Part shown: in pieces, positions 3,374 through 20,000 of the stretch | How the letters are laid out: each line of letters starts with the position of its first letter | Position numbering within the stretch: position 1 is the stretch's first letter | Source: an uncultured virus (IMG/VR IMGVR_UViG_3300025470_000021) | Lineage: Duplodnaviria; Heunggongvirae; Uroviricota; Caudoviricetes | Virus record (IMG/VR): IMGVR_UViG_3300025470_000021 | DNA length: 20,000 bases | Reading direction: 5' to 3' (one strand) | Notes under the pieces: model-generated | Databases searched by the model: none | Seen by the model: only the letters and a program-made list of their open reading frames with translations | What the model was told of the DNA's origin: nothing | Made by a program: the position numbers and the translations under genes

Positions 3374-4312
3374 ATGAATCGCTCTGATGGTCTCGACAGG
3401 TTTGCTCAACCTATCAGTCTAGAAGGCAGAGCCACATCCTATTTTTCTAGCCCTGAGCAGGATTTAGATCCTCGTCTCTTTTCTGGCAACCAACTCAAGG
3501 GCTGGGTTCGTTCTGGGTTGATGCAACTCCTCTTTGACTTCTTACATGAGAAGTACCGTCATGCTGATCTTTGGGCACATGTATGGATTGCAGGTTCGGG
3601 TGTTTCATACCAGTGGTCTGCTGCTCGCGAACCAGGCGATCTTGATGTGTTGATTGGTGTTAACTACATCCAATTCCGTAAAGCCAACCCTGAGTATCTT
3701 GGACTTGGTGATACAGAGATTAGCCAGATGCTCAATGAAGATTTTCGTACATACCTGCAACCAGAGACAGAGAACTGGAATGGGTTTGAAGTTACTTTTT
3801 ATGTAAATCCTGGCGCTACAGACATCACATCAATTAATCCATATGCAGCATACGACCTTACTCATAACGAGTGGACCGTTCACCCACAACAACAGAGCGC
3901 ACCATACAAGCCTGTATGGGAAGCAATGGCTCAGCGTGATCGTAATATTGCATCAGAGATTGTCACTCGTTACTCAAAGGCGCTTGCTGATTTGCATGGT
4001 GCCCAGAATGATGCAGCACGCAGAAATGCAGAGTCACGATTGCAAGCATCACTTTCACAAGGCTCAGCGCTGTTTGAAGACATCCACCAAGCACGTAAGT
4101 TTGCATTTAGTCAGACAGGTGAAGGCTATTCTGATTTTTATAACTACCGCTGGCAGGCTGGTAAAAAATACGGCACAGTACCAGCGTTGCGCCAGATGCA
4201 TGATTACCTTCAAGCATACAAAGAAGGAAACGCAGAAGAAAACTATGGCGTTCAATTACCAGATACTCAGACACTCATTCGTAGAGCGGCGACATACAGA
4301 GCAAAAGGATAA
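3374..4312 (+). CDS. Pol-beta superfamily nucleotidyltransferase
   Basis: hxGS...(x)n...GDLDVLI signature (IAGSGVSYQW...PGDLDVLIGV). Confidence 0.75.
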   Translation: MNRSDGLDRFAQPISLEGRATSYFSSPEQDLDPRLFSGNQLKGWVRSGLMQLLFDFLHEKYRHADLWAHVWIAGSGVSYQWSAAREPGDLDVLIGVNYIQFRKANPEYLGLGDTEISQMLNEDFRTYLQPETENWNGFEVTFYVNPGATDITSINPYAAYDLTHNEWTVHPQQQSAPYKPVWEAMAQRDRNIASEIVTRYSKALADLHGAQNDAARRNAESRLQASLSQGSALFEDIHQARKFAFSQTGEGYSDFYNYRWQAGKKYGTVPALRQMHDYLQAYKEGNAEENYGVQLPDTQTLIRRAATYRAKG

Positions 4313-4315
4313 ACG

Positions 4316-4807
4316 GTGAACATACTACTATCACTAGACGGGGTATTAAGTTCTGACACAGGAGAACCAATCAGAGCAGGAGTAGCAATCTACTACGCTC
4401 TTAATAACGGTAACCGTGTCTCTCTCCTTACCTCACGCACTAAAGCCGATGCAGAGCAATGGCTATTTAGTCATGGAATTATTGGCTATGACGATCTTAT
4501 CTGTGACGATGTGCACCTAGAGGGCGATGATCTTAAGCGCCGTCAATTTAAGTTACTACGTAGCCAAGCACCTGTAGAGTTCTATGTAGACTCAGACCCA
4601 GCCATGTGTGCATGGGTATTTGAACAACAGCGTGTTGCCACTCTTCTATTCTCACATCCGTCATACGCTAAGATCGAAAACCGCCCCGATGCTCCTAAGC
4701 CATATCGAACGTGGGCAGAGATTGAAGAAGCAGTCAACCGAGCCAACATTGCTCGCTCTGTAGACCGCTTACGCCCAGATACCAAGATTGGCGAGTACTC
4801 TGACTAA
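4316..4807 (+). CDS. HAD-superfamily (PNKP-phosphatase-like) protein with a degenerate motif I
   Basis: ILLSLDGVL (vs DxDGxL), LLTSR motif II, K, YVDSD motif IV; GTG start after AAGGA. Confidence 0.65.
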   Translation: MNILLSLDGVLSSDTGEPIRAGVAIYYALNNGNRVSLLTSRTKADAEQWLFSHGIIGYDDLICDDVHLEGDDLKRRQFKLLRSQAPVEFYVDSDPAMCAWVFEQQRVATLLFSHPSYAKIENRPDAPKPYRTWAEIEEAVNRANIARSVDRLRPDTKIGEYSD

Positions 4808-6308
4808 GATCATATTTTCAGGAGCCGAGGTAGGCTCTAACCGCACGCTCTTAGAAGGTATGAAAGTTGAGTCGATGGGACTCAACTTCTGGGGTCTCCG
4901 TAAGCGTGGGTTGCCAAAGACTAAGATTTGGCTGATTAGTGAACACTTTACCCCAGAGACTCAGGTCATCATTGAGTCAGGGGCAGCACAAGCGGACAAG
5001 GCTGGGCTATCACGACAGGAACTGCTTTCCCTAGCCGCTGAGTACCAAGAGTTCCTCGTCAACAACGCAGATCGCGCCTTAGCCTTCCACGAGTTTGACT
5101 CCCAAGTACTAGGTAAAGAGTGGATAGAAGCGCAGCGCCCCTTCTTTGAGAACGACCCAAAGTTATGGGTAGTCTGGCATGAGTCCTACGGCATAAGTAA
5201 CTTGCGAGAACTGGCGGGCCGCTATCCCAACATACTTATACCCAACGCCGCGATAGAGGCTGTCACCAATCTATCGGGAGTGACTCGTGGTCTTGCACGC
5301 CAGACAGGAACCACCTTTCACGCCCTCGGATGTGCCAAGCCAGACAACCTAAGGCAGATACCATTTGGCTCAGCGAGCACATTGTCATGGCTATCACCGA
5401 TGCGCAGAGGCGAGACGATCGTCTGGGATGGCAAGCAGATCAAGCGATACCCCAAGCGCATGAAAGACCAAGCACGCATCCGTTATAAGACGGTTGTCGA
5501 GCGTGCTGGGCTAGACTATTCTGAGTTTGTTAAAGATAGTACCCTCGAATCGACTAGAGTTGCAGTCTGGTCATACCTACAGATGGAGTCCGCTATGGAG
5601 AAGAAACCGCCTAACTTCCACATCATTGATGGGGGTAAAAAGGACATAGTATCTGATAACAGCGATGACCTGTATACGGGGCTAATGATGGAATTAGGGG
5701 GTGACCCTTCTGATAACAGTGGTGCAGAAGGGAGGAAAGTGGAGCGTGCAGAAGTCGTAGAACGCGCCCCAGAAGAGATGCAAAATCTCCCAGTGTTTGG
5801 CTTCAAGACTAAGACAATCGTAGAGAGAGGCGATGACGGCAAGGATGTCCTTAAGGATGTTCCTGTCGTTCACACGCAACAGGCAAGCCTTCGTCAGTGC
5901 GATACCTGCTTCGTTGCAAGCAACTGCCCAGCCTTCAAGCCACAGAATCAGTGCGCATTTAACCTGCCTGTTGAGGTAAAAACCAAAGATCAACTCAAGG
6001 CGTTACTCACTGCAATTATTGAAATGCAGGGGCAAAGAGTGGCTTTTATGCGTTTTGCAGAGGAAATGAACGGTGGTTACGCAGATCCAAATCTCTCGCA
6101 AGAGATCGATCGCTTGCTCAAGTTAGTGGGCAATGTCAACGAGATGGATCAGAATAAAGAGTTCATCCAAATCACGGCAAGCCGTCAATCTTCGGGTGGT
6201 GTACTCTCTGCAATCTTCGGAGATCGCGCCCAAGCACTGAAAGAGTTGCCAGAGACACTCAAGGAAGAGTCAGTCACTAAGATCATTCAGCAATCTATTG
6301 AAGATTAG
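4788..6308 (+). CDS. TGT/DpdA-like barrel fused to a C-terminal Cys-cluster/helical domain (start uncertain)
   Basis: IIESGA (cf. DSGA), FHALG (cf. HxxG), PFGSASTLSW (cf. S.DS.SW); C-terminal CxxCx5CPxFx5C. Confidence 0.5.
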   Translation: MASTLTKIIFSGAEVGSNRTLLEGMKVESMGLNFWGLRKRGLPKTKIWLISEHFTPETQVIIESGAAQADKAGLSRQELLSLAAEYQEFLVNNADRALAFHEFDSQVLGKEWIEAQRPFFENDPKLWVVWHESYGISNLRELAGRYPNILIPNAAIEAVTNLSGVTRGLARQTGTTFHALGCAKPDNLRQIPFGSASTLSWLSPMRRGETIVWDGKQIKRYPKRMKDQARIRYKTVVERAGLDYSEFVKDSTLESTRVAVWSYLQMESAMEKKPPNFHIIDGGKKDIVSDNSDDLYTGLMMELGGDPSDNSGAEGRKVERAEVVERAPEEMQNLPVFGFKTKTIVERGDDGKDVLKDVPVVHTQQASLRQCDTCFVASNCPAFKPQNQCAFNLPVEVKTKDQLKALLTAIIEMQGQRVAFMRFAEEMNGGYADPNLSQEIDRLLKLVGNVNEMDQNKEFIQITASRQSSGGVLSAIFGDRAQALKELPETLKEESVTKIIQQSIED

Positions 6309-9822: not shown

Positions 9823-11100
9823 TCACTCCATAAAGTCATTGGCGAGTTCTCCTGCCGTTGACTGCTGGTGACGGAGTCGGTGTAAATACCTTTCCGTCGT
9901 TTTAATTGACTGGTGACCTAATCGCTCTTTGACCTCGTGCACATCTACCCCATTTTTTAGTAACTGGGTAGCGTTAGCGTGCCGAAGGTCGTGAGTTCTA
10001 GGAGTCCAGCCAATTCCTGACTTGGCTATTGCTTGGTTCCATGTAGTTCTCCATACTCCACGCGGTAAGTGGCTCGTCTCGTCGGTCATGGTCTGACTAA
10101 TCCTAGCCTTGCCCTTAGCCTTCCGATACTCTCGTTTCGTCTGGCTACAGGCTTGGCATCGGCAACCCCCATGTGTATAGGAGTAGAGCGTTCCATGCTT
10201 GAAGCGTTTTCCCTCTGTTGCATAGGGCTCCAGAGTGTCGATCTCGCGTGAAGGTTCTAGTTTACCTGCCGTTAATACTATCGATCGAGGGAAGAGCAGG
10301 TCATCTTTCCGCAGCGAGTTAGCCGAGACATAGGCAGCAATCTCTTGTAAGAGGGCTTTTGAGAGGGTTACGGAGCGTTTCTTGCCCGATTTAGTAGCAT
10401 CTATGACCTTGAATCGCTCGCCAGCGTTGTATTGCGCCCCTAGATCACTGACTCGTCTCTGGATAAATACTTCGCCAGAGTTAAAATTGAAATCCTTTAC
10501 CCTGAGTTCTGTAGCCTCACCGAATCTCGCCCCAGAGAGCACGAGCATCTTGGCAAGTAACTTCGCACCGGAACCGGTTCCGTCAGGCAAGTTACTTAGT
10601 ATCTTCTTAAACTCGGCAGGCTCAAGGACATTCTGCAGGTCTGGCTGGCTGACTTTGATCTTGATGCCATGCGTGGGGTTGCTGGTGATCGCCTCACTCT
10701 CGACCAGCGAGGCGAAGGCTGAGCCCAGACACGCCTTGACCTGACCCAGCGTGGCTGGCTTGACCCCCTCAAGTCTGAGGTCACTAAGTAACTTTCGAAT
10801 CTGGCGGGCAGAGATGGAAGTTACTTCATTTGCGCCTAAACGATCTCGAACATATGTACGAAAGGTCATGGTGTAGTTCTTCTTAGTGATCGGCATAAGG
10901 TCAGCCGTCTGAATCCATTTGTCGAAGTACTCGGACAGGCTAGAACCAGCCTCAGAAGGCTCTGTAAAGCCCAGAACCTCAGCCCTCAGACCCGAAGCCT
11001 CAGCCTGAGCATAGGAATCCCATGTGCCAGCAGAGAGGCGTTTGCCGTCTACTCGGTAATATGCGGTAAAGCGTTTACCGCGTTGTACTACATAAGCCAT
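9823..11100 (-). CDS. int: Tyrosine recombinase/integrase with a Zn-finger insertion
   Basis: SGARFGEA (R), TKS (K), HDLRH, LGHQS, TERY (Y); N-terminal arm-binding-like and core-binding regions; GGAGG 6 nt before ATG 11100. Confidence 0.93.
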   Translation of the reverse strand: MAYVVQRGKRFTAYYRVDGKRLSAGTWDSYAQAEASGLRAEVLGFTEPSEAGSSLSEYFDKWIQTADLMPITKKNYTMTFRTYVRDRLGANEVTSISARQIRKLLSDLRLEGVKPATLGQVKACLGSAFASLVESEAITSNPTHGIKIKVSQPDLQNVLEPAEFKKILSNLPDGTGSGAKLLAKMLVLSGARFGEATELRVKDFNFNSGEVFIQRRVSDLGAQYNAGERFKVIDATKSGKKRSVTLSKALLQEIAAYVSANSLRKDDLLFPRSIVLTAGKLEPSREIDTLEPYATEGKRFKHGTLYSYTHGGCRCQACSQTKREYRKAKGKARISQTMTDETSHLPRGVWRTTWNQAIAKSGIGWTPRTHDLRHANATQLLKNGVDVHEVKERLGHQSIKTTERYLHRLRHQQSTAGELANDFME

Positions 11101-11132
11101 AGCCACCCTCCCTCAGAGTGTTACTGGTCAGT

Positions 11133-11161
11133 ACCTTACTCGCCAGTAGAAAGTTAGTCAA
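11133..11161 (-). promoter_or_regulatory. sigmaA-type promoter of the recombinase gene
   Basis: TTGACT-17 nt-TAAGGT on the - strand, overlapped by TACTnnnCAGTA palindromes. Confidence 0.7.
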
Positions 11162-11167
11162 AAGTAT

Positions 11168-11196
11168 GGGTATCGAGTTACATAGAGAACCCAGAA
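11168..11196 (+). repeat. Left copy of a 29-bp long-range inverted repeat
   Basis: GGGTATCGAGTTACATAGAGAACCCAGAA; 27/29 match to the reverse complement of 19523-19551. Confidence 0.9.
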
Positions 11197-11204
11197 CGGT
11201 GGAC

Positions 11205-11366
11205 TTACTGGTCGGCGTTGCCGTTCCAGAAGTCGGGATTGTAGGACTTATTGATTGGGTCATTGATGAGATCAGACCAATCACAGATGCAGTCCAAGCG
11301 GTTGCTTGAACAGTTAGGACAACGATAACGATCTCCCCTAAAGAGATCTTCTAAGTAAATGGTCAC
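11205..11366 (-). CDS. Small Cys-rich protein (53 aa, not in the ORF track)
   Basis: AGGAGG RBS, GTG start; MTIYLEDLFRGDRYRCPNCSSNRLDCICDW... Confidence 0.65.
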   Translation of the reverse strand: MTIYLEDLFRGDRYRCPNCSSNRLDCICDWSDLINDPINKSYNPDFWNGNADQ

Positions 11367-11436
11367 TATTCCTCCTAGTGACTTGGGGCGTAGTCTGGCT
11401 ACGATTCCATGACAGGTTTAGGCAATGTCTACATCG

Positions 11437-11610
11437 TTATACCTCCACTACCTGAGTAGTGATGAGATCGTAGGCATCAGTGAATGCCTCCACGATCGTG
11501 ACACCACTGCCTACTGCGACAGTCCTCTCCTTCTTGTCGGTGAGGTTGACCACGATGCGATCAGACATAACTGTTACATCGATCTCGTACTTACTAGCAC
11601 TTCTTGCCAT
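11437..11610 (-). CDS. Hypothetical protein (57 aa, not in the ORF track)
   Basis: MARSASKYEIDVTV...VVEV; starts 1 nt after the stop of the HTH gene. Confidence 0.65.
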   Translation of the reverse strand: MARSASKYEIDVTVMSDRIVVNLTDKKERTVAVGSGVTIVEAFTDAYDLITTQVVEV

Positions 11611-11611
11611 A

Positions 11612-11794
11612 TTAGTTTCCCTTGCTCTCTCGTTTAGTTATCCATGTATCGATTGTTGACTTACTCCACAGAGGTTTGTTGCCGATCTGTAGATCTGGCT
11701 CTGGAAGGGTGTTTCGCTTTCGATGCCTGTATATCGTGTCGTACTTGAGACCCGACAATTTTGCGATGTCGGTATATGTAAGCCATTCGCTCAT
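11612..11794 (-). CDS. AlpA/excisionase-like winged HTH protein (candidate recombination directionality factor)
   Basis: LT..DIA..SGL..DTIY......LPEPD..IG..PLW....ID.W. Confidence 0.8.
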   Translation of the reverse strand: MSEWLTYTDIAKLSGLKYDTIYRHRKRNTLPEPDLQIGNKPLWSKSTIDTWITKRESKGN

Positions 11795-11808
11795 GCTTTA
11801 GTACTCTC

Positions 11809-12129
11809 CTAAGATTGATCTTCATTGGTTATATCTCGCTTATCTATGTATTCTAGAAATTGATCTAAGATCTTTGTTAGATCATCTACTGAGTGCTCGG
11901 TGAACCCAAGCAGGATCTCGATCACTTTCATAAGCCCCCAGATAATCATCTCTGGCTCTATGTCATTCTCTGAGAGAACGCGATCAAGATGATCGTTGGC
12001 TAGGTACTCCTTGATCTCTGGCGGTAATCCGTCTAGTCGCTCTGCCTCTACCTTGAAGCCACGAGCCACCTTGATGAATTCGCTGGCGATGAGGATTGAC
12101 TTGCGTAGTTCTATTGCCTCTTGATTCAT
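11809..12129 (-). CDS. Hypothetical protein (106 aa)
   Basis: AAGGAG RBS; helical acidic protein. Confidence 0.75.
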   Translation of the reverse strand: MNQEAIELRKSILIASEFIKVARGFKVEAERLDGLPPEIKEYLANDHLDRVLSENDIEPEMIIWGLMKVIEILLGFTEHSVDDLTKILDQFLEYIDKRDITNEDQS

Positions 12130-12131
12130 AG

Positions 12132-12284
12132 TTACTCCTTACCTTTGCAGTTAAAACATATCCACATAACATTCTCTTGATTGTGTTCGATAAACTTCCC
12201 AGAAGTAATTAGCCCCTGCTGACCGCATTGATCGCAGGTATCTAATTGATCTGGTGTTACTCTGATTAGTTCTACATAACCCAT
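12132..12284 (-). CDS. Small Zn-ribbon protein (50 aa, not in the ORF track)
   Basis: TAATG coupling; CDQC...CFNC. Confidence 0.7.
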   Translation of the reverse strand: MGYVELIRVTPDQLDTCDQCGQQGLITSGKFIEHNQENVMWICFNCKGKE

Positions 12285-12764
12285 TACGCCACCTTTCCTG
12301 TCTTTACATACTTGTGTAAGTAATCTTTATTTTTCTTGCTGGTTCTGATCTTGTGGCAGTAAGCGCATCGCACTACGCATTTGCCGATTTCTTTCTGCAA
12401 TTTGATCAATGGAATACCCTCTTGAATGCCGAGAGAGATATCGAATGACTTGCGCCCTCTAACATGGTCGAAGTCCAACCCTCTGATGTCTGCGTTGCCA
12501 CAGTCCACGCATGGGTTCTCGGATTTGTACTCAGCAACATAGGCTTGAAGTACTGCACGCCTCTTTGCCTTTGCATACTTAGTCTGCTTGATCATCACCT
12601 TGTGATTGTCGGTGTAGTGATCGTAACTAGATTTCTTCTGGCACGACCTGCACTGAGTCTGCAATTTATCAGGTCGTGCACTATTGCGATTGTAAAGATG
12701 TCGAGCCTTGTAGCGATTGCACTTGAAGCATCGCTTGGTCGTTGCTTTCATTACGCCACCTTTC
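12282..12764 (-). repeat. 16-bp exact direct repeat GAAAGGTGGCGTAATG flanking the HNH gene
   Basis: CATTACGCCACCTTTC at 12282-12297 and 12749-12764. Confidence 0.9.
12284..12751 (-). CDS. HNH endonuclease
   Basis: CxxC..., CVDCG...LDFDHV...KC.VRCAYCH.IRT. Confidence 0.88.
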   Translation of the reverse strand: MKATTKRCFKCNRYKARHLYNRNSARPDKLQTQCRSCQKKSSYDHYTDNHKVMIKQTKYAKAKRRAVLQAYVAEYKSENPCVDCGNADIRGLDFDHVRGRKSFDISLGIQEGIPLIKLQKEIGKCVVRCAYCHKIRTSKKNKDYLHKYVKTGKVA

Positions 12765-13008
12765 GTCTATTGCGTGATACATAGAGTGGAGAGTTGTAAC
12801 TCTTTCCGTAGTACATCTTTCCTCCCCATATTCCATATATCTGTGTTTGACTCTCTGCATATTCGGCGCACTGATTAAGTAGTGGACATCTCTTGCAGAC
12901 TTTAACTGCTTGTTGAATGTCTCTTCGAATCTCGAAGTTATTATCAGGAAAGAATATCTCTGGGTCAATTTGAGCGCAGAGTTGTGTGCCGTCATATGGT
13001 GGTTGCAA
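12751..13008 (-). CDS. whiB: WhiB-family Fe-S transcription factor
   Basis: C...DPEIFFP...CxxCP....C....GIWGG; GGAGG RBS, TTG start. Confidence 0.92.
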   Translation of the reverse strand: MQPPYDGTQLCAQIDPEIFFPDNNFEIRRDIQQAVKVCKRCPLLNQCAEYAESQTQIYGIWGGKMYYGKSYNSPLYVSRNRRKVA

Positions 13009-13164
13009 TTAATAGCCTCCTAAGCAGTCCTTGCCTTTGGTGTGAAGTGGTAATGCGTTCTGCATCTCGTAGAGCGTTGGTGCGTAGAGCATAGACTTAC
13101 AGGCAGAGCATTCATAGTGCCACTCCTCTGCCTGTGCATCGTATTGAAAGCCCTTGTCATTCAT
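13009..13164 (-). CDS. Small protein (51 aa, CxxC; not in the ORF track)
   Basis: ATGA coupling; MNDKGFQYD...ECSACK...H....CLGGY. Confidence 0.65.
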   Translation of the reverse strand: MNDKGFQYDAQAEEWHYECSACKSMLYAPTLYEMQNALPLHTKGKDCLGGY

Positions 13165-13409
13165 GCGTTTGCTTTTTCATTAGTGACTTTACTGAGAAGA
13201 TCTGTGATCTCTTGTTCACTCACTGGCTCCCAGCCTTCACCTTCATCGTACTGCCATTGATCAAGGAGTTCTAAAAGAGCAACTCGAATGACATTGAGTT
13301 CTGGCGCTGTAAATGGCGTATTGAGATCATACGCATTAGTGCAGGTCTGACACATTTCTGTGCGATCAACTAATTCGTTTACTTCATAACCACAGTTTGA
13401 ACAGGTCAT
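13161..13409 (-). CDS. Hypothetical protein with an N-terminal Zn ribbon
   Basis: CSNC...CQTC; AGGAG RBS. Confidence 0.7.
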   Translation of the reverse strand: MTCSNCGYEVNELVDRTEMCQTCTNAYDLNTPFTAPELNVIRVALLELLDQWQYDEGEGWEPVSEQEITDLLSKVTNEKANA

Positions 13410-13410
13410 G

Positions 13411-14166
13411 TCATGCTCCTATCTTTACGAAGTTGTGTGATTGAGTTTCAATTAAATCTCCCTCTACTACAGATATGTCAGAGAGGTTGAGTGTCTTGTA
13501 CTTCATGGTGTGAGGGTTGCTAGGAGTCGTGTAGCCCACGATGAACCTGCGACCCTGAGTGCCTACAACTATGCCGTTGCGTAATCTGCCATGCGCTTGA
13601 ATCCAGACCCAGTCATTAACCTTTAGGTTGTAGGGCTGAGCCATTACTTTACCCCACACTAGATTTCCTGCTAACTCGTTAAGCACTGACTTGTGATCAA
13701 GAAGAACCGCCTCAATATCGATGCGCTTCTTGGCTTTGTTGGTTGTCTGCTTGTGCGAGGTAGTCTGGAAGTTGTCAACGATGAATCGATCATCGCCCCA
13801 GAGATGACCAAGTACTTCTGGCTCTACATCGAGATCTCGAATGCGCCATGAGTATGCCGAGTACTTAGTCTCTGTTTGCCATTCTCCACGATCTGATAGA
13901 GACATCGCTTTGTGATCATCGAAGTATCCACAGTGACCATTCTCAAGAACATATGCCCAACTCATTGTGATCTTACGAATGATGAGTTGATGACCTTTAT
14001 AGGTCTCTTCGGTATATGAGATATCTGAGCAACGAATCTCTGCAGTGTTGCCTATATTCCTACGATTAACCCATGACCCGTACCAGACCTTACCTACCTT
14101 GTCTGAGTACTGGCTCTGGTTCTCGTAGTAATCCTTCAACCGCTTTAAGTAAAATGAATCTGTCAT
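13411..14166 (-). CDS. Hypothetical protein, possible C-terminal SH3/KOW-like barrel
   Basis: LKVNDWVWI...G.VVG...IVGY pattern; ATGA coupling. Confidence 0.7.
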   Translation of the reverse strand: MTDSFYLKRLKDYYENQSQYSDKVGKVWYGSWVNRRNIGNTAEIRCSDISYTEETYKGHQLIIRKITMSWAYVLENGHCGYFDDHKAMSLSDRGEWQTETKYSAYSWRIRDLDVEPEVLGHLWGDDRFIVDNFQTTSHKQTTNKAKKRIDIEAVLLDHKSVLNELAGNLVWGKVMAQPYNLKVNDWVWIQAHGRLRNGIVVGTQGRRFIVGYTTPSNPHTMKYKTLNLSDISVVEGDLIETQSHNFVKIGA

Positions 14167-14768
14167 CGCACCATATCCCTTGCTTCTAGAACCTTCTCTA
14201 CTAATACCTGCATGAGTGATAGGTCGAGATCGAATCGGTAAGTAGGAACATACTCACCCTGCTCGTTGCGCTTGTTACGGCTTGAGAGTTCAATCCCGTC
14301 AACTCGATTACCGATGATTGTCCGAAGAGAATCTTTGACTGCCTTAGCAACGCGATCAGCACGCTCTTGTAATTCGCGCTCTAATCTTTGGCGTTCCTCT
14401 CTCTGTTTGCGCTCTACCTCAAGGCGAATGCGCTCAGCCTCTTCTTCTTGAGTCCAGCGTTCCTCTAGAGAGGAGTACTCAGCCACAATATCCTGAGGTC
14501 GAGAGACCCAGTAGAGAGTGTTACCGAATGAATCTGACTTCACCAGATAGCCCACAGAACGAGAGCCCTGAGGGGCTGGCTTGAAGGTCGCATCGTTAGG
14601 GTTCTCTGATCGATAGACCTCGTATGCATACTTATCGAGACTGACTAACTCAGCCTTAGATAGATCTCGGCGTTGAGCCTTTGCTGGATTCTTCTTATCT
14701 GCTGAGGAGTAATCCCATGAAGGAATTACTCCATACTTGATACCGACCTTGAGTTCTGCTTGCTTCAC
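14163..14768 (-). CDS. Hypothetical protein with a coiled coil
   Basis: AAGGAG RBS, GTG start; E/R-rich helix. Confidence 0.75.
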   Translation of the reverse strand: MKQAELKVGIKYGVIPSWDYSSADKKNPAKAQRRDLSKAELVSLDKYAYEVYRSENPNDATFKPAPQGSRSVGYLVKSDSFGNTLYWVSRPQDIVAEYSSLEERWTQEEEAERIRLEVERKQREERQRLERELQERADRVAKAVKDSLRTIIGNRVDGIELSSRNKRNEQGEYVPTYRFDLDLSLMQVLVEKVLEARDMVR

Positions 14769-14778
14769 TGTTTGCTCC

Positions 14779-16716
14779 TTACGCGTTAGTTAATCTGCGA
14801 GAGATCGCGTACTTAACGATCGCTCTTGCCATTGTGATGAGATCAAGAGGGTTAGCAACTACTGCACCGATCTCACAGTTGTGAGCCTTCTCAGCAGTAA
14901 GCACTACCTCTTCATGCTTCTCTGGAATATATGCGAAGGCAGTCAATACTTTTGACTGACCCATGCGCTTGATTGCATCTTCGTTTGCATCTTGATTGCC
15001 GTACCACTCGCCGTCAGTGATGATGAAGAAGATTTTGATCTTGCGATCACTCTCAGCAAGCAACTTTGTTGCATACTTGATCGCTTGATCTGGCTCTGTG
15101 CCACCGCCACTGAATGCATCTCGAATCTGAGAATTAGATTTCTCACTAGCGCGATACAGGACATGAGTTTCATCGCAGAATGTCAGCACTGTTGTGCTGG
15201 CATCGATACGATCAAGTGCTCGCTTGATTGCGTACATTGCACGATTAGCGTTAGCGATCTTGCTCCCTGTCATTGAGCCAGAGTTGTCGATAGCGATCAC
15301 GCATTCGATGTCGGTAGCATCTTCACGACCCTCATTCCATTGATCGAAAATCGTGTCAAAATCATCGCCACGCATATAGCGACCAACACTCAAGCGACCA
15401 GCGTTCTCGTATCTATCCCATGCAGGTTCGAATGAGGCGCGAAGGCGTTCGAGTTCACGACCGAATGATCGTGATGCTTCAACCGTCACTGAGTCGGGCA
15501 TGATCTCGCTATAGCGAGCACGCTCTGGCTCTTGTGAGTTGTTTGATGTGAGAGTTGGCTGACCACTGATCACTCGAAGAATGTCATTGATCTCCTGAGC
15601 CACACCAGACTCGCTAAGAATCTGATCGAGCACTGTAGAGATCATCTCACCAGCACTAGCCCCAGCATCGAGTGACGGCTCTGGCTTGCTTTGATCTGAA
15701 TCTGAATCTGTATCCCCTGAATCTGAATCTGAATCTGAATCGGGAGTTACTTCATCGCTCTGATCATCGAAGTCAGACCAATCGATGTCCTCTGCCTTGA
15801 TCTCTGGGAGATCGTCATCGAGATCATCTGGCTTGTTATTGAGACGATCGCGCTCCTTCTCCTGCTGGCGTGGTGGCACTGGGCGAGAGTCGACTGATGA
15901 CTCGATGCCCTGCTGAGGGCGAGCACCATGACCGCATGGGTCGATGACTTTGACTGGTGTGCCTTCGCCTTCACCATTGACTGCCTTGTACTTTGGTGTA
16001 CCAGTCTCATCACCATTGCCACCCTCACTCTTTGGTAGCAGGTTGTAGTACTGCTCAATGAGTTGTAATCCGCGCTCTGTATCTGTTGGGAATACGAGAG
16101 TGCGATACTCATTGATAATCGCCTTAAACTCATCGATCTTATCTTGATGAGGATAGAGAGCACGCGACTGCTGGCGAATCTCGACAGGTAGATACCTGCG
16201 ACCGCATAGCAATGGATAAGAGTTCTCGAACACCTCTGGGTTGTTCTTGAAGTGAATCAAGATCATCGAAGTGAACCACGCGACTGTTGAAGGGTACTTA
16301 GCAGTGAAGAATGACTCGATGCGCTGATCTTCTAACGCATTGAATGCAGTCCACCACTTGTTAGCAATTACTTGCTCAACGAGATCGCTACCTTCTCGGC
16401 TGGTGTACAAGATGTGACTGACCTCGTGAAGATCAAGCCCCTTGATGCTTGCGATCGACTCAGGTGTATCAAGTTCACCGATCTCATTAGCATTGAAGTA
16501 GACATCACTAGCCCCAGACCATGCTGGGGCTTTGATTGATGCGCTCTCAACCTTGACTGTCACTGGTCGGAATGTGAAGGCAGAGTTCACACGAGAGAAG
16601 AAGCCAGTGAAGCGTTCGATACGCTGGCGTTTAGCCTCTTGTGCCTTCTGATCTTCTGTTAACTCTTTGAGTGCATCGAAGATTTCTCCGAGATCAGTTA
16701 CATTGATCTTGTCCAT
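14779..16716 (-). CDS. vWA-domain protein with an N-terminal HExxH (metallopeptidase-like) domain; CobT/NorD-like partner
   Basis: LHEVSH and NALEDQRIE; acidic D/S linker; MIDAS DNSGS, GGT, ITDG. Confidence 0.88.
   Translation of the reverse strand: MDKINVTDLGEIFDALKELTEDQKAQEAKRQRIERFTGFFSRVNSAFTFRPVTVKVESASIKAPAWSGASDVYFNANEIGELDTPESIASIKGLDLHEVSHILYTSREGSDLVEQVIANKWWTAFNALEDQRIESFFTAKYPSTVAWFTSMILIHFKNNPEVFENSYPLLCGRRYLPVEIRQQSRALYPHQDKIDEFKAIINEYRTLVFPTDTERGLQLIEQYYNLLPKSEGGNGDETGTPKYKAVNGEGEGTPVKVIDPCGHGARPQQGIESSVDSRPVPPRQQEKERDRLNNKPDDLDDDLPEIKAEDIDWSDFDDQSDEVTPDSDSDSDSGDTDSDSDQSKPEPSLDAGASAGEMISTVLDQILSESGVAQEINDILRVISGQPTLTSNNSQEPERARYSEIMPDSVTVEASRSFGRELERLRASFEPAWDRYENAGRLSVGRYMRGDDFDTIFDQWNEGREDATDIECVIAIDNSGSMTGSKIANANRAMYAIKRALDRIDASTTVLTFCDETHVLYRASEKSNSQIRDAFSGGGTEPDQAIKYATKLLAESDRKIKIFFIITDGEWYGNQDANEDAIKRMGQSKVLTAFAYIPEKHEEVVLTAEKAHNCEIGAVVANPLDLITMARAIVKYAISRRLTNA
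15694..15741 (-). repeat. In-frame hexamer tandem repeat encoding a (DS)n linker
   Basis: (TCTGAA)n on the + strand = DSDSDSDSGDTDSDSD. Confidence 0.8.
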
Positions 16717-16726
16717 GTGTTACTCC

Positions 16727-17599
16727 TTAGACTGTTGCGTACTGAGTTGTTACTGCATCTTGATCGATGCCTAGATCATCTTTGATATTGAATGATGCGC
16801 CCTCAAGAAGCATCTTGACTGCTGGGCGTTCTTCATCAGAGAAGTTGTTAGCGAACACTTCGCACGCTAGATCGAAGTTCAATTCTTTCGCTACTAATTC
16901 GAAAGTCTTGAGAATGCGTGGAGTGATTGGTGTTTCGAAGATCGTTGACTTGCTCGCCTGACCGAGATCAACGCCACGAGATTGAGAACGCATACCGAAT
17001 GCGAGATCAAGAAGAGACTCTGACTTGATGATCTTGCTCTCGATAGCGCGATCGTATTCGTAACGCATCTTGAGTTGGAAGCGATCAGCCCACGACTCAG
17101 AGAGAGGTTGTCGACCTCGGTACATTGGATTCCAGTCAGCGATCACGATGAGATCTGGGTGAGCATGAACCACTTCGTAATCTTTGGCAGTGAGCGTGAG
17201 AGTACGGCGATGATCAAGGGCTGGGTGGAAGAAGAATTGAGCATTCTTTGCGAGTTGATCGATCTCACCAAGATTGAGAACACCACCATTGCGCCAGACT
17301 TCGACATAGACCGAGTCAACCCATTCGAGTTTGCCGTCACGCGATACCCAGTTGCCCTGCAACTCGTTAGCACTGAGTGCTGAGTTAGAAGGTAGATCGA
17401 CATAAGGCAGACCGCGCTGGCTTGCGTAGTACTGAGCGAATGATGTCTTACCAGTACCAGCATGACCAGCGTTGAGGATATTGATCTTGTGCTTGCGAGC
17501 GAAGTCTGCGATCTGTAGACCAGAGATACCGAACCAGTTGCGATCGATGTAGTGCTCTTGAGATTCAAGAGTTGGAATTAATTGATTGAGTGGATTCAC
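16727..17599 (-). CDS. MoxR/CbbQ/CobS-like AAA+ ATPase
   Basis: Walker A GHAGTGKT, Walker B-like LNLGEID, NP..Y.G..., DRF, TPR; adjacent to the vWA gene. Confidence 0.9.
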   Translation of the reverse strand: MNPLNQLIPTLESQEHYIDRNWFGISGLQIADFARKHKINILNAGHAGTGKTSFAQYYASQRGLPYVDLPSNSALSANELQGNWVSRDGKLEWVDSVYVEVWRNGGVLNLGEIDQLAKNAQFFFHPALDHRRTLTLTAKDYEVVHAHPDLIVIADWNPMYRGRQPLSESWADRFQLKMRYEYDRAIESKIIKSESLLDLAFGMRSQSRGVDLGQASKSTIFETPITPRILKTFELVAKELNFDLACEVFANNFSDEERPAVKMLLEGASFNIKDDLGIDQDAVTTQYATV

Positions 17600-17609
17600 T
17601 TATTGCTCC

Positions 17610-17870
17610 TTAGTTGTAGTCGGGTGTTGGTACTTCTGGGTTCTTGATTATTGCCTGTGATACATCAGAGAGATCATCAAGTGATTGTGCGATGTCTATG
17701 AATGCGTTGTGCTCTTCGCATCGCTTGTCGATAATGATCTGCAATTTATCGAGTGCTGATTCAAGCGTTGCGATGATGACTGCTGGTGCACCTTGCTCGT
17801 TGGCGAAGTCGAGAGACTTAGCAAGCATTGCGCCCATGATGCCGAGTTCATCTAATTCGAATTCGTACAT
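17610..17870 (-). CDS. Hypothetical protein (86 aa)
   Basis: GAGGAGG RBS; abuts the upstream stop. Confidence 0.75.
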   Translation of the reverse strand: MYEFELDELGIMGAMLAKSLDFANEQGAPAVIIATLESALDKLQIIIDKRCEEHNAFIDIAQSLDDLSDVSQAIIKNPEVPTPDYN

Positions 17871-18143
17871 TTAATCCTCCTCACTTATCCACGCATTGAG
17901 TCGTAGTGAGTTCACGATCTCCCATGCAAGGGCTGATGATGACCCACGAAACTCGACACCTTGAGGGAGTGTGATCTCTGGGTTGTCTCCGTCATTGATT
18001 GCTTTGATTGCCTCGATCGCTGGCGCGACCATGACTTGAGGCACTGGTGGATAGCAATTCGATGAGAAGTGAATTGCGATCTGTTGTTCGAGTTCCAGTA
18101 CAAAATTGCCCGATGCGAGATCGGTAGCGAAATTAGAGCCCAT
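17871..18143 (-). CDS. Hypothetical phage protein (90 aa)
   Basis: GAGGA RBS; H...N.YPPVP motif. Confidence 0.75.
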   Translation of the reverse strand: MGSNFATDLASGNFVLELEQQIAIHFSSNCYPPVPQVMVAPAIEAIKAINDGDNPEITLPQGVEFRGSSSALAWEIVNSLRLNAWISEED

Positions 18144-18261
18144 TGGATTCTTCCTCTTCTAGAGTTTGGCGTAATAGATTGATATCGGGAGTAAGGACAG
18201 AGTCGAGCCAGACCGCGAAGATCGTGGCTAGAGTGCAGGAGATAAGAAGGAATAGGAACAC
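18133..18261 (-). CDS. Small membrane protein (42 aa)
   Basis: TAA-GTG junction; hydrophobic N-terminus MFLFLLISCTLATIFAVWL. Confidence 0.5.
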   Translation of the reverse strand: MFLFLLISCTLATIFAVWLDSVLTPDINLLRQTLEEEESNGL

Positions 18262-18576
18262 TTACCAGACCGCCCTTCTAACGATGCCCTGATGTTTGCT
18301 GGTAGTAACTGAGTAGCGGATTGCAGGTATCTCCCAACCATTGGCGTGATGCCAAGCGATCGGAGTTCCATAGGAGTAGACGATGAAGTCTGGCTTGTGA
18401 TCTTTCAGAAGTGCCACGACATCGCTCTGCAAGCGACCTGTGTGCAGATATTTGCCCTCCTGAAAGTAGATACCAGCCATTGAGTTGGCTTTGAATGGCT
18501 GACGGTTGAATATGTACTCACCAGCACCAGAGTTGGTAGTGCTCTTGCCTTTGATTTCTGTATAGCGTGTTGTCAT
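18262..18576 (-). CDS. Conserved phage early protein
   Basis: IVYSYGTPIAW...YSVTTSKHQ motif common in phage early regions. Confidence 0.8.
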   Translation of the reverse strand: MTTRYTEIKGKSTTNSGAGEYIFNRQPFKANSMAGIYFQEGKYLHTGRLQSDVVALLKDHKPDFIVYSYGTPIAWHHANGWEIPAIRYSVTTSKHQGIVRRAVW

Positions 18577-18716
18577 TTATTTCCCTCCCACTTTAAGAGT
18601 GTGCAGATTCTTTGATCTGCGACTTGGTGGCACTTGCCATAGACAGGGTGATGCGTGGCAATGAATGCCATGCCACCGATCAATAGTGCTGAGAAGATCG
18701 CGCCTAGTGCTTTCAT
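18573..18716 (-). CDS. Small membrane protein (47 aa)
   Basis: GGAGG RBS, TAATG and ATGA coupling; MKALGAIFSALLIGGMAFIA... Confidence 0.65.
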   Translation of the reverse strand: MKALGAIFSALLIGGMAFIATHHPVYGKCHQVADQRICTLLKWEGNK

Positions 18717-18823
18717 TAATTGACCTCCGTATTGTCGTAGTCGATGATCTCAACCTCAACACCAGCAGGACAATGCGTTACTTCTGCAACGCCACCTGAA
18801 ACTGTGATGATGATCTTGCTCAT
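18716..18823 (-). CDS. Small protein (35 aa)
   Basis: MSKIIITVSGGVAEV...VEIIDYD; coupled at both ends. Confidence 0.65.
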   Translation of the reverse strand: MSKIIITVSGGVAEVTHCPAGVEVEIIDYDNTEVN

Positions 18824-18930
18824 GCGCTCACCTTCTCTGGTGCTAGTTGATTGATGAGGAATGCATAGAGAGAAGGTGCTACTGATTGGCGTAGCACCTC
18901 TAGATCGTTGTCGATGTTATTGAGTTCCAT
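18820..18930 (-). CDS. Small protein (36 aa)
   Basis: AGGAGG RBS; TAATG and ATGA coupling. Confidence 0.6.
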   Translation of the reverse strand: MELNNIDNDLEVLRQSVAPSLYAFLINQLAPEKVSA

Positions 18931-19172
18931 TATTTGCCCTCCTGTAATAGTGCTGAGTACTGCTCAAGAAGAGTTCTGCCGTCTAGTGGGTGCTTGTACT
19001 TAGCGAAGCGCATAAACTCGTTGCGCTGAATGCGTGATCGATTGCCGAAGATAGTGACTGATAGGCGTTCGATCATTGAGTCGAGAACCTTGATCTGTTC
19101 ATCGGTTGTGCAATGAGCGCGTTCCCATGCGAATGCCTGAGCGATGCGAGCCTTGTCTGTTGTGAGAGCCAT
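18930..19172 (-). CDS. Hypothetical protein (80 aa)
   Basis: Start at MALTTDK with an AAAGGGG RBS rather than the 19436 start in the ORF track. Confidence 0.7.
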   Translation of the reverse strand: MALTTDKARIAQAFAWERAHCTTDEQIKVLDSMIERLSVTIFGNRSRIQRNEFMRFAKYKHPLDGRTLLEQYSALLQEGK

Positions 19173-19174
19173 GA

Positions 19175-19354
19175 TTACGCCCCTTTCACGATCTTTGCGA
19201 TATTGAGTGACTTGATGAAATTGATCTCGAAGCCCTCTGATCGGGTCGAGAAGAAGCGAGTGCCGTCTGCTAGAAGCAGGTCGATGAGTTGAGGCGAGAT
19301 CACGCCTTTGGCAACGATCTTGCCGTTGGTATCGATAAATACCTTTGATTTCAT
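19175..19354 (-). CDS. Hypothetical protein (59 aa), first gene of the leftward block
   Basis: AAGGG RBS; MKSKVFIDTNGKIVAKG... Confidence 0.65.
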   Translation of the reverse strand: MKSKVFIDTNGKIVAKGVISPQLIDLLLADGTRFFSTRSEGFEINFIKSLNIAKIVKGA

Positions 19355-19386
19355 TGGATTTGCCCTTCGTGTATAGATAGCACCAG

Positions 19387-19517
19387 ATTGCTATCAGAAC
19401 CGCCCACAAGTGGATTGTGAGCAGTTCTGGTGGCAATTAGTTAGGGGCTGGTGTCACTGTGCTGTCGGTCGGATTGATTACCGCCTGCACCATTGCTGGC
19501 AGTCCATGACCAGCCCC
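19387..19517 (-). ncRNA. Structured 5' leader (long hairpin plus a multi-stem element)
   Basis: 15-bp stem at 19395-19429 with G-U pairs on the - strand; 9-bp closing stem 19444-19452/19509-19517. Confidence 0.5.
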
Positions 19518-19522
19518 GCTAA

Positions 19523-19551
19523 TTCTGAGTTCTCTATGTAATTCGATACCC
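19523..19551 (-). repeat. Right copy of the 29-bp long-range inverted repeat
   Basis: The - strand reads GGGTATCGAATTACATAGAGAACTCAGAA. Confidence 0.9.
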
Positions 19552-19581
19552 CTGATACGAGGTCTGCATCACCGCGCTGGT

Positions 19582-19702
19582 TGCCCCTAGAGGATTCTGA
19601 ACCAGTAACTCGATCGAGATCGAGCACCTGCGCGTACACTGCCTAACTCGCGTGTATCTGTACCTTTTTCACTTCTGGTTCGATGCCCCTAAGGGATTCT
19701 GA
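19582..19702. repeat. 19-bp imperfect direct repeat TGCCCCTA(GA/AG)GGATTCTGA
   Basis: 19582-19600 and 19684-19702, 17/19 identical. Confidence 0.75.
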
Positions 19703-19894
19703 TCGTTCCGCGTGTGTACAAGGATGATCATTCCGTATACATAGGACAAGGTCAAATAGGCGCACCGATTTTCTGGGTCAATATGTCCGATTTATACGCA
19801 TAATTTTGGGGTCGTAAGTAAGTTTGACCAGTCATCATGTCGATATTGTCCGAATTGTGCAGATCGTTGGCACTCGGAGTAAGTGAGTGCTAGT

Positions 19895-19933
19895 TAGTTG
19901 AATGTTCAATTATGTAGTTGAAGATTCAATTAT
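19895..19933. promoter_or_regulatory. Tandem palindromic operator-like sites TAGTTGAA-NN-TTCAATTAT
   Basis: Two copies with a 20-bp period (19895-19913, 19915-19933). Confidence 0.65.
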
Positions 19934-20000
19934 CACGATGTCACGATGCGAGCCGAAATCGCGCCAAGTGTTTTTTCTTCCAGAGTTTGATACAAAGATA

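Follow-up and report, generated by a model that had tools for sequence, protein, structure and literature searches.

An inverted repeat beside the integrase gene of a freshwater actinophage-like virus very probably pairs the ends of a predicted early messenger RNA

The stretch of DNA considered here, 20,000 nucleotides (nt) from an uncultured virus of the Caudoviricetes (IMG/VR record IMGVR_UViG_3300025470_000021; hereafter the window), raises the question of why its entire leftward block of early genes is enclosed by an inverted repeat that lies beside a gene for a tyrosine recombinase (int). The two 29-nt copies, at 11168-11196 (+) and 19551-19523 (-), are identical at 27/29 positions, are spaced 8326 nt apart and share a 13-bp identical core; re-deriving them returned the coordinates and the match given by the initial annotation, which had described an intergenic repeat bracketing the whole block. 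Both copies are intergenic and all genes from 19354 down to 11205 are enclosed between them. At 93% identity they form the top-matched long inverted repeat of the window (self-BLAST E 1.5e-5), and an 18-nt sub-stretch, with up to three mismatches allowed, has exactly two occurrences as compared with a chance expectation of 0.01. Tyrosine recombinases such as FimB/E, Rci, and Flp invert DNA between inverted sites, and the block had accordingly been put forward as an invertible switch or a device for Flp-like amplification. We conclude with high confidence that the copies are instead complementary segments at the two ends of the early messenger RNA (mRNA; 8.3-kb block, transcript of ~8.5 kb) and that these ends pair as RNA.

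The evidence that carries this conclusion comes from relatives, which were gathered via the repeat, int, the MoxR-like AAA protein of the block, and an RNA motif. Thirty-one loci had both ends (those with a truncated leader were excluded), and removal of near-duplicates left 21 representatives. As the trailer we took the 62 nt that precede the terminator or, in loci where none was found, the -35 hexamer of int; its position was adjusted manually by 6-17 nt in 11 loci of the 31, with 7 of the 21 representatives among them. A first, permissive chaining of the arms proved noisy and was discarded in favor of stricter chaining, with scoring that was neutral between G-U and A-C. In distant phages the arm sequences differ, but in every genome the two ends still complement each other. 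Their 3' side is one contiguous stretch, and the 5' side consists of nested segments (A, B, and C) that lie 100-370 nt apart, separated by RNA domains. Cognate leader-trailer scores were 34-81 and were above all 12 of their own shuffles in every one of the 21 representatives. For 13 trailers the best of the 21 leaders was their own, and for the other eight it was equaled or outscored by a leader whose arm is similar. A single long arm of 26-29 bp is present in four representatives (the window, L030, L045, and L172), and the remaining 17 have two to four segments with a total of 31-55 bp, although a few of the outermost short segments are probably noise. These figures read as if the total grip is what is kept, either in one 26-29-bp duplex or in 31-55 bp spread over pieces.

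On the transcribed strand, the paired columns comprise 758 Watson-Crick, 20 G-U, 8 A-C, and 13 other combinations, and the excess of G-U over A-C has a p-value of 0.018 with kinship among the phages ignored. The predicted energy of joining the two ends is -13 to -45 kcal/mol, versus -1 to -14 for shuffles, and the value for the window is -37. Both arms are 28-29/29 identical between the window and L030, whose DNA identity is 75-80%, and a terminator is present in neither. Two contigs, L026 and L012, overlap by 1798 identical bases and together carry the 5' arm of the window and an intact terminator; their trailer has the mismatch at another position and an additional G-U. Judged by sequence comparison, the two ends show compensatory co-variation; their pairing is under selection, has a strand bias, and lies between a predicted promoter and terminator.

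The same comparisons bear on inversion of the block by the tyrosine recombinase, with the copies acting as DNA recombination sites. In its favor are the intact recombinase gene adjoining the left copy, the 13-bp identical core in the window, and the helix-turn-helix (HTH) gene inside the block, which we confirmed as Xis-like as first annotated; inverted repeats beside a tyrosine recombinase gene are likewise a feature of the FimB/E, Rci, and Flp systems. Unlike those systems, however, the phage locus has one orientation and segmented, freely covarying arms. The block lies upstream of int and is co-oriented with it in 83/83 distinct int alleles (46-100% identity), counted over all loci that have int together with one or more block genes, and the same single orientation was found in 47/47 int alleles whose loci reach the AAA gene. 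All repeat copies of the seven loci compared keep their parental flanks. At least half of the window is contained in 24 listed sequencing runs, all of them freshwater metagenomes and none an RNA data set, which carries no information on expression. In contigs of four of these runs, the 12 joints listed were all skips with 0 strand changes; three runs have single contigs that span the left copy, and one run has a single contig across the right copy. As contigs lose rare variants, the evidence from joints is of moderate weight. The mismatch at arm position 24 was kept in 11/11 trailer copies compared, and such persistence of mismatches between the copies argues against exchange or homogenization between them. 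Furthermore, division of the arms by folded domains, as in 17 of the 21 representatives, with sequences that differ among relatives, would not be tolerable for a recombinase site, and a distant clade (below) retains int without either leader domain D3 or a clear complementary trailer. We consider inversion at this repeat to be extremely improbable; neither the switch nor the Flp-like amplification was borne out by the relatives or the joints. A further suggestion, that the copies belong to a dispersed promoter or leader motif, is at odds with the presence of exactly two copies of the repeat in a complete 100-kb relative and with domain D3 being single-copy in four records.

The right copy lies ~170 nt downstream of a predicted early promoter, within a leader of ~370 nt (Table 1). 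The promoter scan is weak on its own (7 sites versus 14.8 in shuffles), and a similar hexamer precedes a conserved 5' motif in the relatives. The predicted fold of the whole leader was better than 100/100 shuffles (z -3.6). Segments A and B are fused in the window because one domain of the relatives, D2, is absent. Domain D1 has conserved motifs in 16 genomes, and 6/10 of its consensus pairs covary in a plain, rough alignment that gave only 10 pairs. An apparent pairing of a D1 segment with the 5' strand of the terminator came from the permissive chaining; it failed in L031, L153, and L156 and was rejected.

Table 1. Positions of the predicted RNA elements, control sites and genes in the window
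Feature	Position	Strand	Remarks
Early promoter, predicted	19727..19755	-	-35 at 19755, -10 ending at 19727; start inferred near 19720
Leader domain D1	19552..19720	-	closed multi-hairpin, optional in relatives; holds the right ACCAGTAAC as a stem strand
5' arm (right copy)	19523..19551	-	D1-D3 linker; equals segments A+B of relatives
Leader domain D3	19441..19520	-	three-way junction, probable UGG/YCA pseudoknot
Leader domain D4	19376..19430	-	long hairpin 19430-19393; base competes with hairpin 19395-19376 just upstream of the ribosome site
Shine-Dalgarno (SD), first gene	19363..19368	-	start codon 19354
Early gene block, looped out by the proposed pairing	11205..19354	-	small open reading frames (ORFs) and the six genes below; gene order conserved in relatives
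MoxR-like AAA	16727-17599	-	early block
vWA protein	14779-16716	-	early block
WhiB	12751-13008	-	early block
HNH-like	12284-12751	-	early block
Xis-like HTH	11612-11794	-	early block
Lineage-specific ORF	11205-11366	-	early block
3' trailer arm (left copy)	11168..11196	-	27 Watson-Crick, one G-U, one A-C against the 5' arm on the transcribed strand
Intrinsic-terminator position of relatives	11162..11167	-	terminator missing in the window
int promoter, predicted	11133..11161	-	-35 11161-11156, -10 11138-11133; unreported by the promoter scan
TTACT-N4-AGTAA palindromes, two	11121-11134, 11136-11149		over the int promoter
Tyrosine recombinase (int)	9823..11106	-	intact R/H-x-x-R/H/Y residues and a CxC..C insert

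Domain D3 was identified in all 31 loci (in L048 by eye) and is the only domain present in all of them. Its structure, evaluated on 21 sequences, has 86.8% paired cells and 128 changes on both sides of a pair, versus 45 in shuffled data (0/500 shuffles as high), and outscores all slid controls, with the caveat that it was derived from the same 21 sequences and that the controls lean in its favor. Residue G17 of the putative pseudoknot pairs with C in 11 sequences and with U in 10. A model built on D3 scores 83.5 bits on the window, by construction, and gave one match each in 4/5 related whole records, while the D3 pattern occurs in 27 viral loci, lying at this leader in all but one (one assigned by eye). 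In a wider search the pattern had two matches in 185,579 genomes, neither scoring with the D3 model. With the covariance models of Rfam 15, positions 10900-20000 of the window had two chance-level matches, the full leader two at chance level, and 10 loci 0 matches. No description of the element was found in the literature searched, which was covered exclusive of supplements, and motif lists outside Rfam may include it. The leader, which shows strong covariation, is best described as a large, multi-domain folded RNA without an Rfam match that is common to this family of lake phages. In four loci (L038, L045, L209, and L212) a pyrimidine run directly upstream of the first gene is complementary to its SD, which suggests translational control.

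The geometry of this RNA, large and with an operon in its loop, together with invariant junction residues in its domains, would suit a split ribozyme or ligation substrate in which leader and trailer circularize or splice the early mRNA. We rate that as very improbable, since no intron or ribozyme of Rfam was matched, the domains are freely gained and lost, and profile searches detected RtcB in 0/5 and RNA ligase in 0/5 of the related whole records.

At the other end of the block, a strong intrinsic terminator follows right after the trailer in 27 of the 31 loci, the exceptions being the window, L029, L030, and L031. Block interiors totaling 181 kb hold three strong terminators on the sense strand versus 12 on the antisense strand, and this scarcity is consistent with the block being read as one transcript, which in the window is predicted to end near 11160. 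In many relatives the terminator is followed by a -35-like hexamer; that of int in the window lies 6 bp from the left copy, as first annotated. The initial annotation had also remarked on an outward-pointing ACCAGTAAC outside each copy of the repeat. Both lie where they were reported, without forming a matched pair: the left one belongs to a TTACT-N4-AGTAA palindrome, as one of its halves, and the right one is a stem strand of D1 that is altered or missing in L027, L030, and L031. The palindrome is present at the int promoter in 19/21 representatives, in one to four copies spaced 15-16 nt apart over the promoter, compared with 15 sites in the 181 kb of block interiors, and these palindromes are probably operators. 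One locus, L032, has a further palindrome (576-589) upstream of its early promoter. A lineage-specific insertion at 11205-11436, with an ORF of 53 amino acids, separates the trailer of the window from the last conserved gene and is missing in L029 and L030.

The position of the trailer is relevant to a different proposal, in which the leader, D3 above all, is a processive antiterminator like put or nut that rides on RNA polymerase and is switched off before int when the trailer pairs with it. In support of this proposal, the trailer abuts a terminator in the 27 loci noted above, D3 and a clear trailer are absent together in the distant clade, and D3 is promoter-proximal and, at ~80 nt, of a size like put RNA (73 nt; PMC9378689); in ribosomal RNA (rRNA) operons, a 5' element is described as being tethered and delivered to its distal complement (PMC8632103). 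Against it, three strong sense-strand terminators in 181 kb leave little to read through unless termination is Rho-dependent, the lineage of the window keeps the arms without a terminator, and there is no sequence likeness to put at the level of Rfam. Antitermination is unlikely on this evidence, though it ranks highest among the rival readings.

We favor, tentatively and at somewhat less than an even chance, a role in which pairing clamps the transcript in cis, fixing and protecting its ends and remodeling the leader. The ~8.5-kb early transcript would be closed by an RNA helix, with the right copy as its 5' strand and the left copy as its 3' strand. The comparison of relatives supports a modular folded leader (D1, an optional D2, D3, and D4) that has the linkers A, B, and C between its domains, and a trailer of ~30-60 nt past the last stop codon that is the contiguous complement of these linkers in nested order; with both D2 and C missing in the window, A and B appear there as a single 29-bp inverted repeat. 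The leader is expected to be the first part to fold, C being buried in the base of D4; in leader-only folds arm C is mostly sequestered at that position. The trailer would be supplied only by a finished transcript and would then zip onto the linkers in cis. Clamped ends would shield the full-length polycistronic message from exonucleases and keep its 3' end stable and short of int. Zipping would also open the start region of the first gene in those lineages that have arm C, and in cases that have no terminator, such as the window, the long duplex itself would mark the 3' boundary.

The length of the helices helps to separate such a clamp from a stalk like that of rRNA operons, in which RNase III would cut the duplex, free the leader RNA, and separate the early message from int. 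A stalk of this kind needs a continuous duplex of about two turns. Uninterrupted helices are 9-21 bp over the 21 representatives, interrupted by whole domains, and internal mismatches are kept in all single-arm lineages; since the helices never exceed 21 bp without interruption, a clamp fits better than a nuclease stalk. The initial annotation had raised leader-trailer pairing as an alternative to inversion, and while its idea of pairing within one long transcript is supported, the RNase III stalk attached to it is doubtful for this reason. We regard the stalk as improbable even with the 20-bp uninterrupted run of the window (G-U counted) and the cutting of long-range intramolecular duplexes in Bacillus subtilis mRNAs (PMC11780869).

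Several considerations weigh against the clamp. The promoter, start, end, and pairing are all predicted, and the strand bias of the pairs fits RNA or single-stranded DNA of the same strand alike. Folds computed from energy alone do not leave the arms clearly more unpaired than their surroundings (0.54 versus 0.41 for the arm of the window; B and C are often lower). The cognate trailer is predicted to open the start region of gene 1 in 13/21 representatives, but to close it in 3/21, and the opening in the window is small (0.55 versus 0.46-0.56). The terminator hairpin protects the 3' end in most relatives and protection alone, therefore, cannot explain the conservation of D3. Lastly, with a translated loop of 8 kb between them, the ends would pair only slowly in cis if the leader were not kept close to the polymerase.

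There is also a bolder reading, which we consider possible but rather doubtful. The whole operon of 7-10 kb would sit in the loop of an ornate RNA that is split in two and is completed only when the last 50 bases are transcribed. This RNA would act as a sensor of the finished transcript without a protein, either switching off a leader bound to RNA polymerase or assembling an active two-piece RNA, and thereby time the end of the early phase and keep int silent without a repressor. If true, this would represent repressor-free control of phage genes and a natural module with which to stabilize or time long messages.

Control without a repressor would also result if the trailer and terminator were released as a small RNA (sRNA) of ~90-100 nt from the 3' end and bound new leaders in trans, giving feedback or immunity. 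Its anatomy would resemble that of the 3'UTR-derived sRNAs OppZ and CarZ (PMC7398697). An intact recombinase is present, and an HTH_3 repressor was detected in 0/5 related whole records, in agreement with the initial annotation, which saw no recognizable immunity repressor in the window. Such sRNAs are recognized by a target that overlaps the ribosome site and by repression; here the arms sit upstream of D4, off the ribosome site, the targets are linkers, and binding is predicted to open the start region (13/21, with closing in 3). The lineage of the window has no stabilizing terminator, and a prophage copy was not found, the D3 model matching 0/151 actinobacterial genomes and the AAA profile 0/401 in searches of limited sensitivity in which only part of the candidates were scored. 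We judge this alternative to be clearly unlikely, ranking below antitermination.

Returning to pairing in cis, comparison with known systems shows what is shared and what is not. The ends of one bacterial mRNA, icaR of Staphylococcus aureus, likewise pair and alter its fate, through an anti-SD motif of 7 nt by which translation is blocked and RNase III attracted (PMC3868564). Unlike that interaction, the phage pairing is ~26-55 bp in up to three segments, spans 7-10 kb, avoids the SD, and docks between domains. In rRNA operons with their stalks and Nus-mediated delivery, a promoter-proximal leader likewise pairs with a complement kilobases downstream (PMC8632103), whereas the phage helix is segmented and encloses a polycistronic mRNA. 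In principle, the phage element would work like icaR pairing and rRNA leader delivery. The put RNA of HK022 is likewise a compact folded RNA heading a phage early operon, but it consists of two stems and a triplex, with no downstream complement mentioned in the description consulted (PMC9378689), in contrast to the three-way junction and pseudoknot of D3. OppZ and CarZ share complementarity of an operon's 3' end to an upstream part of the same operon; they repress in trans at ribosome sites, and the phage targets are non-coding linkers (PMC7398697). Finally, GOLLD, ROOL, and OLE are also multi-domain covarying RNAs of several hundred nucleotides, GOLLD being lake-derived (PMC12286853), but differ, as far as that source describes them, from a leader that is completed by a distant trailer and has no Rfam match. 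The bacterial cases of mRNA end-pairing compared here are short or local, whereas the phage pairing spans a whole polycistronic operon, is built of interchangeable folded domains, and is kept across phages with 55-60% identical integrases. Genome scans should allow for this, since inverted copies next to a recombinase gene can turn out to be the strands of an RNA helix.

In the distant clade (AAA at most 40% identical) the terminator and int are kept, D3 is missing, and there is little room for a trailer; chain scores are 18-34.5 versus shuffle maxima of 19-32 (leader windows guessed; L051 borderline). Other long hairpins lie upstream of the first block genes in L050, L051, L057, and L059, and these possibly represent a different leader family. 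Two cultured phages related through the AAA protein, Gordonia phage Gray and Brevibacterium phage Cantare, had no D3 and no leader-trailer repeat in the stretches examined. Upstream of its AAA operon, Gray (L214) has a gene-free stretch of 1.16 kb (17868-19027), also with no D3 match. Cantare (L215, MK016493.1) has six exact intergenic TACATAG-N3-CTATGTA palindromes, versus 0.07 expected, at 12902, 17322, 18234, 19874, 22755, and 29348, which are probably an operator or promoter motif. Their half-site is identical to the core that the lake phages conserve in arm A, which may reflect coincidence or shared origin.

As for the source of the window, its DNA is that of a phage, with an actinobacterial host probable, and it carries genes for WhiB, a MoxR-like AAA protein with its vWA partner, a class II ribonucleotide reductase, and the tyrosine recombinase. 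WhiB serves as an actinophage marker (PMC10202952), and the virus is probably a freshwater actinophage-like one. The catalytic residues of the recombinase (R194, H372, R375, H398, and Y407) are invariant in 8/8 relatives, as are H, C-R-C, and C in an insert at residues ~300-325, which has a weak PHROG match and is a possible zinc-binding module for DNA contact. On the + strand are a queuine tRNA-ribosyltransferase-like gene (4788-6308, PHROG 887), a DUF7178 gene (841-1476), and a gene for a protein of 312 amino acids (3374-4312), all three possibly involved in DNA modification. Within the vWA gene, a short tandem repeat at 15686-15749 codes for a DS-rich linker of the protein.

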